Notes: generated by a model not told the origin, from the sequence alone. A stretch of 64,000 bases of DNA from an uncultured Chloroflexia bacterium (GCA_963697585.1 CAVOOO010000009.1:151295-215294); one strand, 5' to 3'. Positions 28,974-59,593 are shown, numbered from the stretch's first letter. A program made the numbers and translations.

Positions 28974-30261
28974 ATGAGCGTGCTGCCGCCGCTCGGCCCC
29001 CCCGGCCACGACCCCGTCTCCGAGCAGTACGAGCACGGCCGGGAGCTGCTCGGGGTGGCCCCCGAGCTCGACGCCATCGACCTGGTCCAGCTCGACGACC
29101 AGACCATGGAGCTGAACATGGGGCCCCAGCACCCCTCCACCCACGGCGTGCTCCGCCTGGTGCTGGACCTGGACGGCGAGATCGTGCGCGGCTGCCGGCC
29201 GGACATCGGCTTCCTGCACACCGGCTTCGAGAAGGACTTCGAGCGGCACAACTACCAGCAGTGCATCCCCTACACGGACCGGATGGACTACCTCTCGCCG
29301 CTCAGCAACAACCTCGGCTTCTCCCTGGCGGCGGAGCGGCTGCTGGGCATCGAGGTCCCGCCTCGGGCGCAGTACCTGCGGGTGATCATGTGCGAGCTGG
29401 CCCGGATCGCCAGCCACCTGATCTGGTACGGGACCAGCGCCCTCGACCTCGGCGCCACCACCCCCTTCGTCTACGCCTGGCGGGAGCGGGAGAAGATCCT
29501 GGACATCAACGAGCTGGTGAGCGGGGTGCGGATGCACACCTCGTTCATCCGGGTGGGGGGGCTGCTCGCCGACGTGCCCGACGAGTTCTACGCCCTGGTC
29601 GCCGAGGTGGCCAAGACCTTCCCCCACCACATCGACGAGTACGAGACCCTGATCACCGGCAACCCCATCTTCCGGGAGCGGACCCGAGGGCTGGGGGTGA
29701 TCAGCCCCGAGGACGCCATCAACTACGGGGTCACCGGGCCGTCGCTGCGGGGCAGCGGGGTCGCCTACGACCTGCGCAAGGCGGTTCCCTACAGCTCCTA
29801 CGACCACTTCGACTTCGACGTGCCGATCGGCGAGCGGGGCGACATCTACGACCGCTACCTGGTGCGGATGGCGGAGATGCGCCAGTCGCTCCGGATCATC
29901 GACCAGGCGCTGGAGGGCCTGCCCGGTGGCCCGGTCAACACCAGCGACCGCCAGGTCGCGCTGCCGCCGCGCAACGAGATCAACACCAGCATGGAGTCGC
30001 TGATCCGCCACTTCAAGCTGGTGACCGAGGGATTCCGGGTGCCCCGCGGCACCGTCTACCAGGCGGTCGAGTTCCCCACGGGGAGAGCTGGGCTTCCTGC
30101 TGGTGAGCGACGGGACCAACCGGCCCTACCGCTGCAAGGTGCGGGCCCCCTCCTTCAGCAACCTCAGCGCCCTGCCCCACATGGCGGTGGGCGAGATGCT
30201 CCCCGACCTGGTGGCGGTCATCGGCTCCATCGACATCGTCCTCGGGGACGTCGACCGATGA
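28974..30261 (+). pseudogene. nuoD: NADH-quinone oxidoreductase subunit D, single-base frameshift as assembled (possible assembly artefact)
   Basis: NMGPQHPSTHGVLRL and the rest of NuoD are in frame up to AVE (30069-30071). Removing one T at 30072/30073 gives [29 protein letters not shown]...[11 protein letters not shown] ending at 30261. The uncorrected ORF runs to 30302 with a nonsense tail. Confidence 0.85.
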
Positions 30262-30301
30262 ACGGCCTGCGCAGCGCCGGCCGCCTCCGGGGGAGCCTCT
30301 G

Positions 30302-30853
30302 ATGCCCGTGCTCACCTCCGAGACCCGCGCCGAGATCGAGAGGCAGCGCGACCGCTATCCGCAGCCGCGCAGCGCGGTGCTGCCCTCGCTCTGGGCGGTG
30401 CAGCACCAGCTCGGCTACCTGAGCCCGGAGGGGATGGCCGAGGTGGCCGAGCTGCTCCGGATCACCCCCAGCGAGGTCGAGGCGGTGGCCAGCTTCTACT
30501 CCATGTACTTCGACCACCCGGGCGGGCGCCACCACGTGCTGGTCTGCATCAACGTCTCCTGCGCCCTGCGCGGCTCCGACGAGATCGTCTCCCACCTGGA
30601 GGGACGGCTCGGCTGCCCCTCGGGCGGGACCACGGCCGATGGGGAGTTCACCTGGGAGCAGACGGTCGAATGCCTGGGCGCCTGCGGCGGCGCGCCCGCC
30701 ATGCAGGTGGACCACCACTTCCAGGAGAACCTCACCCCGGAGCGGGTCGACGCCATCCTCGACGAGGTGCGCGCCGCGCCGGCATCCGAACCGGATGGCG
30801 CTTCCGCGGGCCACGCCCCCGCCGCCGCCCGGGCCCGCAGGGCGGGTCGCTGA
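30302..30853 (+). CDS. nuoE: NADH-quinone oxidoreductase subunit E
   Basis: VLPSLWAVQHQLGYLS, ASFYSMY, VCINVSCALRG...CLGACGGAPAMQV (2Fe-2S cysteines). Confidence 0.9.
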   Translation: MPVLTSETRAEIERQRDRYPQPRSAVLPSLWAVQHQLGYLSPEGMAEVAELLRITPSEVEAVASFYSMYFDHPGGRHHVLVCINVSCALRGSDEIVSHLEGRLGCPSGGTTADGEFTWEQTVECLGACGGAPAMQVDHHFQENLTPERVDAILDEVRAAPASEPDGASAGHAPAAARARRAGR

Positions 30854-57661: not shown

Positions 57662-57688
57662 GCGCCGGAGCGCCCGGAGCGATCCGCG

Positions 57689-58660
57689 ATGAGCTCGTCC
57701 GCCCTCCTCCTCGCCGGCGTCGGGGCGATCGCCCTCTTCCTCGCCATCATCGTTTTCGTCCTTCCGGGGGCGGACTCGATGCTTCACAACCGGCTTCGCC
57801 AGCTCGGCGACGTCGCCCCGCTGGTGACCAAGGAACCCCAGGCCCCGCGCGACCCCGTCGGCCAGCTCCGTCATGCGGTCCAGTCCGCCTTCGGAAGCCG
57901 GTTCGAGCGCACCGACCGGGGCTCGCGGATGGCGGACCGTCTGGCCCGCGCCGACCTCAAGGTGCGCCCGACCGAGTGGATACTGATCTCGGCGGGCGCC
58001 GCAGTGGTGGTGGGCGTGCTCCTCTACCTCCGCTTCGGAGCCCTGCTCTTCTTCCCCGTCGGCATGCTGGTCGGCTACATGGGCGCGCAGTTCTTCGTCC
58101 GCTACCGGCAGTCGAAGCGCTCCAAGGCCTTCAACGCCCAACTCTCGCCGACCATCCTCCAGCTCAGCGGCTCGATGAAGGCCGGCTACACCTTCGCGCA
58201 GTCCATCGATCTCTCCGCCAAGAACCTCCCCGCCCCGATGGGGACGGAGCTGGGGCGGGTGACCCGCGAGGTCCAGCTGGGCCTGCCGATGAACGAGGCG
58301 CTCAGCCGGATGGTCCGCCGCAACGACTTGGAGGACCTGCGCCTCATGCTGATCGCCGTCCAGATCCAGTCTCAGGTGGGCGGCAACCTCGCGCACATCC
58401 TCGACACCATCGAGTTCACGGTGCGCGAGCGGATCCGGATCAAGGGTGAGATCAAGGCGCTCACCGGCCAGGCGCGCGCCTCCGGATGGGTGCTGATCGC
58501 CCTGCCCTTCGGCATGACCGGGATCCTGATGATGATCGCGCCGACCTACTTCGACCCGATGCTGAAGACAACCCCCGGCCACGTGATGCTCGGGCTGGCC
58601 GGTTTCATGATCCTCTGCGGCTACGGGATCATCCGCAAGATCGTCAACGTGAAGGTATGA
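57689..58660 (+). CDS. tadB: Tad pilus inner-membrane platform protein TadB (T2SSF family)
   Basis: 323 aa. T2SSF domain ...AGYTFAQSIDL...LGLPMNEALSRMVRR...IQSQVGGNLAHILD. Confidence 0.8.
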   Translation: MSSSALLLAGVGAIALFLAIIVFVLPGADSMLHNRLRQLGDVAPLVTKEPQAPRDPVGQLRHAVQSAFGSRFERTDRGSRMADRLARADLKVRPTEWILISAGAAVVVGVLLYLRFGALLFFPVGMLVGYMGAQFFVRYRQSKRSKAFNAQLSPTILQLSGSMKAGYTFAQSIDLSAKNLPAPMGTELGRVTREVQLGLPMNEALSRMVRRNDLEDLRLMLIAVQIQSQVGGNLAHILDTIEFTVRERIRIKGEIKALTGQARASGWVLIALPFGMTGILMMIAPTYFDPMLKTTPGHVMLGLAGFMILCGYGIIRKIVNVKV

Positions 58661-59593
58661 GCCACAGCCTGGTGATCCTGGTCGGCGCCGGCGCGGTGAT
58701 CGCGCTGGTGGTCTTCCTGGCGGTCTGGATGATGGTGCCGTCGACCCCGCTCGGCAGCATCCTGGAGCAGCGCCTCGCCAGCGTGCCCAACGCCGCCTCC
58801 TACGACATCGACCTGGAGACCGGCGAGTTCACCCAGCCGGCGTTCGAGCGGCTGGTCCTGCCGATCCTCAGCGGCTTCGGCAACATCATCGCCAAGCGGA
58901 CCAAGGAGGGGCAGCTCCAGCAGCTGCGCAAGCTGGTCGCCAAGTCCGGCTCACGGCAGCGACCCGAGACCCTGCTGGCGCTCCGCCTCATCCTCCCGAT
59001 CGCCGGCGCGGCGGTCTGCCTCGGCCTCGCCGAGCTCCTGAACCTCAAGCCTCCCGAGAACCTCCTGATCATCGTGGTCGGCGTCATCGGCATGTACATG
59101 TACCCGACCATGTCGCTGGAGCGGAAGGCCAAGAAGCGGCAGAAGGACATCCAGCTCGCGCTTGCGGGCGTCATGGACCTGCTCACCGTCTGCATGGAGG
59201 CGGGGCTCTCGCTGGACATGGCGATCATGCGGGTCGGCGAGTTCGGACGAGTCCCTGCTCGCCAGGGAGTTCCAGAAGCTGCTCAACGAGGTCCGGCTGG
59301 GCCGGCAGCGCGGCGAGGCCATGATGGCCATGGCCGAGCGCAACGACGTCGAGGAGCTGACCGAGTTCTGCCGAGCGGTGGTCCAGGCCGAGCCCCTCGG
59401 GGTCAGCGTGGTCAACGTGCTGCGCATCCAGTCCGAGGAGCTGCGCCGCAAGCGCAAGCAGCGCGCCGAGGAGGCCGGTCACCGCGCCCCGGTGCTGATG
59501 CTCCTGCCGATGATGGGCTGCATCTTCCCGTGCGTCTTCGTGATCCTGCTGGGACCGGCGCTGGTGGGGATCTTCTTCAAGACCGGCACCTGA
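58657..59593 (+). pseudogene. tadC: Tad pilus platform protein TadC (T2SSF family), single-base frameshift as assembled (possible assembly artefact)
   Basis: ATGA overlap with tadB. In frame to LDMAIMRVGE. Removing one T at 59242/59243 continues SDESLLAREFQKLLNEVRLGRQRGEAMMAMAERN...GIFFKTGT* (59593). Confidence 0.8.

Follow-up and report, generated by a model that had tools for sequence, protein, structure and literature searches.

Single-base insertions at GAGTC in nuoD, nuoF, nuoM and tadC of a peat Candidatus Dormibacterota assembly are very probably consensus errors at a probably methylated motif

Results and Discussion

Four conserved genes lose their frame at the same short motif

The window (the whole 64-kb stretch of DNA that was analysed) carries nuo genes of complex I and tad genes of a Tad pilus. 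In nuoD, nuoF, nuoM and tadC, the reading frame is broken by one extra T, and the sequence context of all four insertions is C-GAGTTC (Table 1), as the initial annotation had described. The high-GC3 coding frame jumped by +1 at each of the four sites, and stop or start codons were absent nearby. In the assembled sequence, the wrong frame of nuoD continues to 30302 and yields a 442-aa ORF, and the frameshifted NuoF product is 365 aa long. Look-ups for exact copies of these two products, of the error-bearing NuoC and of the strain-specific Rieske/DUF2231 and DAO proteins gave no hit. The chance that four random insertions would all fall inside the 61 GAGTC/GACTC 5-mers of the window is approximately 2e-10.

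Removal of the T restored all four proteins, which shared 99.5–100% of their residues with the unbroken orthologues of other assemblies of this Candidatus Dormibacterota species from peat (NuoD, 428/428 residues and NuoM, 532/533, both compared with locus L002; TadC, 311/311 with L025; NuoF, 434/436). Pfam analysis, with matches over full-length profiles, assigned the restored NuoD to Complex1_49kDa (profile positions 1–271 of 271), NuoF to Complex1_51K and NADH_4Fe-4S, NuoM to Proton_antipo_M and TadC to T2SSF. The identities and the Pfam matches confirmed the earlier reading that the frames downstream of the breaks are the conserved ones. When the four restored proteins were compared with their orthologues for signs of gene decay, neither a second lesion nor relaxed constraint downstream of the break was found.

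Table 1. Genes with an extra T, positions of the insertions, and point differences at GAGTC/GACTC in the window
Feature	Position	Strand	Description
nuoD	28974..30261	+	428 aa after removing T at 30072
nuoF	30853..32164	+	436 aa after removing T at 31873; S85L point error at 31106
nuoM	39110..40712	+	533 aa after removing T at 39893
tadC (T2SSF family)	58657..59593	+	311 aa after removing T at 59242
nuoD insertion, GAGT[T]C	30069..30074	+	Spurious T is 30072 or 30073; GAG TCC = Glu-Ser of ESPRGELG
nuoF insertion, GAGT[T]C	31870..31875	+	One spurious T (31873); GAG TCG = ES of HESCGKCAPCREG
nuoM insertion, GAGT[T]C	39890..39895	+	One spurious T (39893); GAG TCG = ES of LPDLYESAP
tadC insertion, GAGT[T]C	59239..59244	+	One spurious T (59242); correct reading GAG TCG
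GAGTC to GAGTT (C>T at 2421)	2417..2421	+	Sirohaem synthase-like gene, Ser>Phe; C in 5/5 short-read loci
GACTC to AACTC (G>A at 7319)	7319..7323	+	Sigma-70-like gene, Asp>Asn; G in 9/9 short-read loci
GACTC to AACTC (G>A at 20417)	20417..20421	+	Small hypothetical ORF; G in 5/5 short-read loci
GAGTC to GAGTT (C>T at 27382)	27378..27382	+	nuoA, YESG>YEFG; C in 8/8 short-read loci
GAGTC to GAGTT (C>T at 28753)	28749..28753	+	nuoC final codons, Glu-Ser>Glu-Leu; C in 8/8 covering loci
GAGTC to GAGTT (C>T at 31106)	31102..31106	+	nuoF, ADESEPG>ADELEPG; C in 10/10 covering loci
GACTC to GACTT (C>T at 58329)	58325..58329	+	tadB, Asp-Ser>Asp-Leu; C in 5/5 short-read loci

The extra T is missing from short-read assemblies of the same species

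The window was compared with short-read-type assemblies of the same species (JGI, MEGAHIT k141 and NCBI MAGs), which represent other strains at about 99% identity. A long-read-style set comprised nine sequences, namely the window and eight loci from ENA 'contig_N' records and Logan ERR runs. All four sites read GAGTC in 17 short-read-type assemblies. The extra T was missing in 9/9 same-species loci at the nuoD site, in 9 clean loci at the nuoF site, in 10/10 loci at the nuoM site, and in L011 and L025–L030 at the tadC site. The long-read-style locus L001 read GAGTTG at the nuoF site, which is a substitution and not an insertion. At the tadC site, the same-strain contig L012 likewise read GAGTTG, and the same-strain contig L013 terminated at ...GAGTT. 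Genome and metagenome contigs were also scanned with a pattern for the nuoF site that permitted GAGT followed by 0–2 bases and returned hits from other species or strains; GAGTCG was found in every one of 11 more contigs, from 5–6 other species. Because every same-species short-read assembly lacks the extra T, we regard the four Ts as assembly errors and not as mutations or recoding.

Deviations of the types G1>A, C5>T or T insertion were found in 33/133 comparisons of consensus GAGTC/GACTC sites in the long-read-style sequences versus 0/368 in the clean ones (Fisher p = 4e-21), the two groups having been drawn partly post hoc. Of the 33 events, 28 were substitutions (G1>A or C5>T) and the remaining 5 were T insertions at T4-C5; other kinds of deviation at GAGTC/GACTC (29053 and 60415) were left out of this count. 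Counted by site and assembly, GAGTC deviated in 20/58 cases and GACTC in 11/44, versus 2.6% for all 5-mers. For GAATC and GATTC, one tally gave 0/39 errors, and a tally over the whole window gave a single candidate (G>A at GAATC 5333) among 37 sites.

Two contigs that evidently belong to the same strain, L012 and L050 (Logan ERR11563597; 8.4 and 10.2 kb), were 99.95% and 99.98% identical to the window, respectively. Over these 18.5 kb, the window differed from them at six positions, the tadC site among them; all six were GAGTC/GACTC sites, and all of the differences were G1>A or C5>T. The sites that were hit differed between long-read-style assemblies, and a second case of insertion at the motif was found in L011 (GACTC>GACTTC at 55186). 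Since assemblies of one strain conflict exactly at GAGTC/GACTC sites, real mutation and recoding are both contradicted.

Point errors occur at the same motif

The window also contained six or seven point errors at G1 (G>A) or C5 (C>T) of GAGTC/GACTC (Table 1); all differences unique to the window numbered 368, and seven were of these two motif types. Three missense changes of this kind lie in nuoA, nuoC and nuoF, and the nuo operon is therefore not otherwise clean, as had been supposed. Some of the altered bases were shared with other long-read-style or same-strain sequences: the T at 2421 with long-read-style L044, the T at 27382 with long-read-style L005, and the A at 7319 with same-strain L050. 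The G>A at 7319 is the reverse-complement counterpart of GAGTC>GAGTT. The T at 58329 in tadB was present in the window, L011, L012 and L013, and may be either an error of the same kind or a real variant of the clade.

Four GAGTTC sites had been put forward in the initial annotation as controls that are read as Glu-Phe. Those at 10489 and 18508 are genuine, whereas those at 2417 and 27378 were judged to be C>T errors at GAGTC, because all short-read assemblies read GAGTCC (Glu-Ser) there.

Altogether, approximately 11 of the 61 GAGTC/GACTC sites in the window were affected, which corresponds to about one error per 6 kb. C>T or an additional T occurred in the window at 10/28 C-GAGTC sites versus 0/33 sites that follow a different base (p = 1.5e-4). 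As a longer motif dividing affected from unaffected sites, the preceding C held in the window but failed in other assemblies, where errors followed G, A and T too. An explanation by methylation errors accounts only partly for this dependence on the flanking base. An effect of strand or gene orientation was also considered, as all errors within 42 kb of the window seemed to lie on the + strand in + genes (7/24 vs 0/19), and was dropped because coverage of the whole window revealed reverse-orientation errors too (7319, 20417 and 58329).

A consensus error at a probably methylated motif

We are confident that the window is a long-read, most likely nanopore-only, assembly of a peat Candidatus Dormibacterota population in which GAGTC/GACTC is probably modified, and that the four Ts are errors at this motif. 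For the window, the 'contig_N' records and the Logan ERR runs alike, naming style and error profile suggest nanopore as the likely platform; a literature search for the run and assembly accessions gave no hit. The Microflora Danica soil MAG pipeline is a nanopore-only Flye assembly with one Medaka round and uses 'contig_N' record names (PMC12313526).

The error pattern points to methylation as the probable cause. The modified base would likeliest be N6-methyladenine at the A, on both strands, in the GASTC subset of GANTC. Such a modification may disturb the base call of its neighbour, with the G 5' of A often called A on the read strand, and this would show as C>T after T on the other strand. 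Reads at the site would then conflict between GAGTC and GAGTT, and the assembler or polisher could arrive, site by site, at the correct sequence, at a substitution (GAGTT), or at a sequence in which T and C are both kept (GAGTTC). Retention of both bases would produce the four one-base 'frameshifts'; we infer this polisher step, for which the insertion in L011 is the one other case. To judge from assembly errors alone, this peat Dormibacterota species likely methylates GASTC and not GAWTC.

Errors with this signature have been published. In R10.4.1 assemblies, C>T and G>A errors dominate, are strand-specific, and are gone in amplified unmethylated DNA (Liu et al. 2024 'Hammerhead', PMC11610603). 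Lohde et al. (2024, PMC11610573) described ambiguous R/Y positions in R10.4.1 data with a minimal motif of RA/TY across 32 species; G1-A2 and T4-C5 of GASTC are RA and TY, respectively. The signature is lost in DNA amplified by PCR or WGA (PMC11610603, PMC11610573). In accord with the proposal in the initial annotation, a methylation-linked consensus error at GAGTC is thus supported by the clean short-read assemblies, by errors of the same family elsewhere, and by the published error types.

The present case shares with the methylation-induced R/Y errors of R10.4.1 (Kit 14) a short motif, G>A 5' of A and C>T 3' of T, as well as the facts that a fraction of sites is wrong, that assemblies of the same DNA differ, and that short reads are clean. 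The published cases stress substitutions, whereas the four sites here show a one-base insertion that leads to frameshifts; furthermore, the motif here is GAGTC/GACTC, in an uncultured Dormibacterota metagenome population. PleI and MlyI (REBASE) are GAGTC-specific type IIS systems. Compared with GANTC adenine methylation of the CcrM or M.HinfI type, the affected motif is restricted to GANTC with N = G or C. Variation in the GANTC subset has been documented in SAR11 and Rhizobiales, where GAWTC is methylated without GASTC (PMC8919816). The pattern seen here, from whose errors methylation is deduced, is the opposite, since GASTC is affected and GAWTC is almost spared.

Alternative explanations

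A k-mer bias of the base caller or polisher at the GAGTC context itself, without any DNA modification, would produce similar errors, and assembly data cannot separate methylation from pure context. That the errors vary with the neighbouring base, being confined in the window to C-GAGTC, would suit such a bias, as would the result that Pfam annotation of relatives revealed no DNA methyltransferase gene in the 64-kb window. The near sparing of GAATC/GATTC fits enzyme specificity and a k-mer effect equally. However, a bias of this kind would be expected to strike GAGTC in all nanopore genomes and hence to be widely known. Together with the disappearance of published errors of the same signature from amplified DNA (PMC11610603, PMC11610573), this makes the k-mer explanation improbable. 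It is considerably less probable still that the strain has truly gained the four Ts by mutation and is losing complex I and the Tad pilus, for example through mutational hotspots at a methylated motif. The reference relatives are indeed other strains, at about 99% identity, and in tadC the GAGT is followed by a T in L012 and L013, both of the same strain. Nevertheless, the same-strain sequence at that site is GAGTTG and not GAGTTCG, and in 18.5 kb these contigs conflict with the window solely at the six GASTC sites. Real mutation would also require four identical insertions and about seven motif-bound changes at conserved residues (such as those of ADESEPG and YESG) in essential genes, with downstream frames whose proteins match intact orthologues at 100% identity and bear no second lesion. 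Such a set of changes cannot be squared with ordinary strain differences, which are mostly G/C changes and transitions, largely at third codon positions. Different long-read-style assemblies were struck at different sites.

The hexamer common to four genes and the intact downstream frames could also be read as programmed +1 recoding, whether the ribosome shifts frame or decodes a quadruplet at GAG-UUC-N, or the transcript itself is corrected. As in prfB-type +1 frameshifting, one extra base lies inside an otherwise intact conserved gene. Unlike in prfB, the shift site is not conserved in orthologues, since other strains and 5–6 other species have an in-frame GAGTC; it lacks a stimulator as well as a stop or a rare codon, and it varies between assemblies, other assemblies of the same strain resolving it differently. 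UUC is a common codon, and the A site, as read from the sequence, holds neither a stop nor a rare codon. Furthermore, 17 genuine GAGTTC sites decode as Glu-Phe, the identical-context control at 27378 proved to be an error site itself, TT is much too short for transcriptional slippage, and a tRNA gene was not found in the window. We therefore consider recoding the least probable of these explanations, and extremely so. If TT were truly in the DNA, the four genes would have to be expressed via +1 correction at C-GAG-UUC-N, or methylated GAGTC would have to be the target of motif-directed hypermutation; we hold this to be very unlikely. The initial annotation had likewise set independent lethal mutations and +1 recoding behind a consensus error, and neither stands, since same-strain assemblies disagree precisely at these sites.

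Consequences for users of the data

With the four Ts taken as consensus errors, the biological weight of the breaks is small: judged by the aligned sequences, nuoD, nuoF, nuoM and tadC are intact in the real genome, and with them the complex I and Tad pilus genes of the organism. The case is rather a warning to data users that motif-specific false frameshifts and missense changes can occur in core genes of nanopore-only MAGs. Such errors raise pseudogene counts, break gene calls and may imitate recoding. In the window, the broken gene calls include the 442-aa ORF noted above, a chimeric 'NuoD', and a 1202-aa ORF that spans nuoL, nuoM and nuoN. For an uncultured phylum, the error pattern also serves as an indirect read-out of methylation that is probably specific to GASTC.

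Other length differences in the window

Over the more than 60 kb compared with short-read assemblies, the only coding indels were the four Ts and one homopolymer. This homopolymer difference (C7>C6 at 13455–13461) is a fifth frameshift and deprives a secreted hypothetical protein of 314 aa of its signal peptide. Besides the four Ts, there were five indels relative to the short-read assemblies, either in homopolymers or intergenic; homopolymer-length differences lie at 562 and 18857 as well as at 13455–13461. Errors in homopolymer length are the other classic residual error of nanopore data. Differences of the same kind were seen in the window and in its 'contig_N' relatives, which points to like data. 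In contrast, the four frameshifts lie outside homopolymers, at a single T in the true sequence. The window also encodes two strain-specific proteins, a Rieske/DUF2231 protein and a DAO protein.

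Frameshifts and restored proteins

In the window (G+C, 72.6%), the coding frame jumps by +1 in nuoD, nuoF, nuoM and tadC, in each case at C-GAGTTC. Three-frame translation and codon-position GC segmentation revealed an old frame without a stop and a new frame without a start at all four sites. Deletion of one T yielded unbroken NuoD (428 aa), NuoF (436 aa), NuoM (533 aa) and TadC (311 aa), and Pfam matches ran across the former breaks: Complex1_49kDa in NuoD (profile positions 1-271 of 271), Complex1_51K and NADH_4Fe-4S in NuoF, Proton_antipo_M in NuoM and T2SSF in TadC. The frame jumps, the restored proteins and these matches indicate that the frameshifts are really in the sequence, as the initial annotation had described in attributing each to an extra T. 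Its claim that the downstream frames are the conserved ones also held, as restored NuoD and TadC were identical to the relatives' proteins at every residue, NuoM differed at 1 residue and NuoF at 2, one of them a motif error. In NuoI (35183-36054, 286 aa), segmentation lost the frame at 35821-36016; its C-terminal tail of about 80 aa has an atypical composition and is kept intact in all relatives.

Comparison with independent assemblies

Relatives were found by exact-product look-up with NuoH, TadB, an aconitase subunit, a PALP enzyme, a short-chain dehydrogenase and a 413-aa hypothetical protein. Many same-species contigs from independent assemblies were obtained, jointly spanning the entire window, with short-read-type coverage extending to 60655. 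JGI, MEGAHIT ('k141_') and NCBI MAG contigs, with about 99% identity to the window, served as the clean comparison set. Pattern scans returned related MAGs from SPRUCE peat, named as Candidatus Dormibacteria or Dormibacterota, and one Microflora Danica MAG with 'contig_N' contig names. In MAG GCA_964606235.1, which has no GAGTC errors, window positions 1-16410 lie on CAZSFT010000007.1 and 24107-45195 on CAZSFT010000013.1; these are joined in the window.

Across the 21-kb nuo region, the three extra Ts were the sole indels relative to clean contigs. The tadC T was missing from seven same-species loci (L011 and L025-L030). At the nuoF site, another 11 contigs, drawn from other strains and from five to six additional species, uniformly read GAGTCG. 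Apart from the extra Ts, the entire window had few length differences from clean assemblies, each homopolymeric or intergenic (Table); two of them, at 562 and 17938, have a GACTC site within a few bases. A fifth frameshift, outside GAGTTC, lies at 13455-13461, where it cuts the signal peptide (MKRPRHALTAV...) off a 314-aa secreted hypothetical protein (13383-14326). The C run there has 6 residues in the window and in same-strain locus L050, and 7 in each of the 10 short-read loci. A homopolymer under-call is the probable cause, although the difference may be a real strain variant.

Table. Positions of sequence differences in the window (G1 and C5, first and fifth bases of GAGTC/GACTC)
Position	Difference	Gene or comparison
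30069	C-GAGTTC, frameshift	nuoD
31870	C-GAGTTC, frameshift	nuoF
39890	C-GAGTTC, frameshift	nuoM
59239	C-GAGTTC, frameshift	tadC
2417	GAGTC>GAGTT	all short-read assemblies
27378	GAGTC>GAGTT	all short-read assemblies
28749	GAGTC>GAGTT	all short-read assemblies
31102	GAGTC>GAGTT	all short-read assemblies
7319	GACTC>AACTC	all short-read assemblies
20417	GACTC>AACTC	all short-read assemblies
58325	GACTC>GACTT	all short-read assemblies
9748	G1>A or C5>T	L012/L050
15106	G1>A or C5>T	L012/L050
55186	G1>A or C5>T	L012/L050
56433	G1>A or C5>T	L012/L050
59244	G1>A or C5>T	L012/L050
59253	G1>A or C5>T	L012/L050
562	G6>G5	intergenic
17938	CG missing	intergenic
18857	G4>G5	intergenic
22105	extra G	intergenic
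55140	polymorphic G run	intergenic

Errors at GAGTC and GACTC

Several point differences at GASTC (GAGTC or GACTC) altered invariant motifs, for example ADESEPG>ADELEPG in NuoF and YESG>YEFG in NuoA. Among the 23 GAGTTC hexamers of the window, 17 were genuine, 4 were insertions and 2 were substitutions. Of the four hexamers taken initially as normal Glu-Phe controls, those at 10489 and 18508 are genuine, whereas those at 2417 and 27378 are invalid because all short-read assemblies read GAGTCC (Glu-Ser) there.

The same error family occurred at other GASTC sites in ENA 'contig_N' loci (L001, L005, L011, L044 and L049) and in Logan contigs of ERR11563597 and ERR10755938, including another T insertion in L011 (GACTC>GACTTC at 55186). 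With groups assigned by naming style and error profile, partly after the data had been seen, GASTC errors were found in 33 of 133 site-by-assembly comparisons in the long-read-style group but in none of the 368 made with clean assemblies (p = 4e-21). GAATC and GATTC sites had essentially no such errors. At 5333, the window alone has AAATC for GAATC (G in 5 of 5 short-read loci and in L044 and L049); this is either the one possible GAWTC case of the error or a real variant. Among the 61 GASTC sites of the window, a C>T or +T error was present at 10 of 28 C-GAGTC sites versus 0 of 33 others (p = 1.5e-4). The other long-read-style assemblies have errors after G, A or T as well, so the restriction seems to come from how the caller or polisher handles sequence context, not from a longer motif.

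Two loci from run ERR11563597, L012 and L050, share 99.95% and 99.98% identity with the window and, judged by this, evidently belong to its strain. Just six positions in 18.5 kb distinguished them from the window, all within GAGTC/GACTC. At the tadC site, the GAGTCG of all clean assemblies is GAGTTCG in the window and GAGTTG in L012; L013, which is from another run, terminates there at ...GAGTT. The nuoF site in L001 reads GAGTTG. A single DNA sequence resolved three ways, at GASTC alone, is the signature of reads ambiguous at the motif, not of mutation.

Origin of the frameshifts

The four frameshifts are no property of the genome. Real mutation or gene decay is contradicted by the disagreement of same-strain assemblies at the motif, the variation in affected sites between assemblies and the perfect downstream conservation. 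Recoding by +1 shift is likewise contradicted: the shift site is not conserved, the 17 genuine GAGTTC sites are read as Glu-Phe, no stop or rare codon is present and the window has no tRNA genes. The absence of the Ts from clean assemblies and the restriction of same-strain disagreement to the motif support a methylation-linked consensus artefact at GAGTC, the explanation initially favored. A k-mer bias independent of methylation fits the literature less well, and we consider it unlikely.

All errors can be expressed as G>A at the G before the A of G-A-S-T-C on either strand, appearing on the opposite strand as C>T after T. Residual R10.4.1 errors are mostly C>T and G>A, strand-specific and gone in whole-genome-amplified DNA (PMC11610603). 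In 32 species, R/Y ambiguous positions had the minimal motif RA/TY, and only some became consensus errors (PMC11610573). Taken with this published pattern, the error form points to N6-methyladenine at GAGTC and GACTC as the likeliest cause of the miscalls; a T insertion would arise when the polisher retains the miscalled T together with the correct C. A large Danish soil MAG project used nanopore-only Flye assembly with one round of Medaka and has 'contig_N' record names (PMC12313526). These results call for caution among users of nanopore-only MAGs and hint, indirectly, that methylation specific to GASTC occurs in Dormibacterota.

Other differences among relatives

In L049 (ENA ERZ25039486 contig_138645), synteny with the window stops after the DAO gene, which is truncated in this contig where a homopolymer is one base shorter (C8>C7, window position 12316). 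Two IS110-family transposase genes follow, and L049 8389-10927, beyond window position ~13146, is a strain-specific insertion or rearrangement. At 53172-54571, where the codon-position signal of the window is blurred, relatives have a minus-strand ORF of 453-539 aa with no Pfam match; the window differs there from L011 by about 30 indels and from same-strain L012 by 0.
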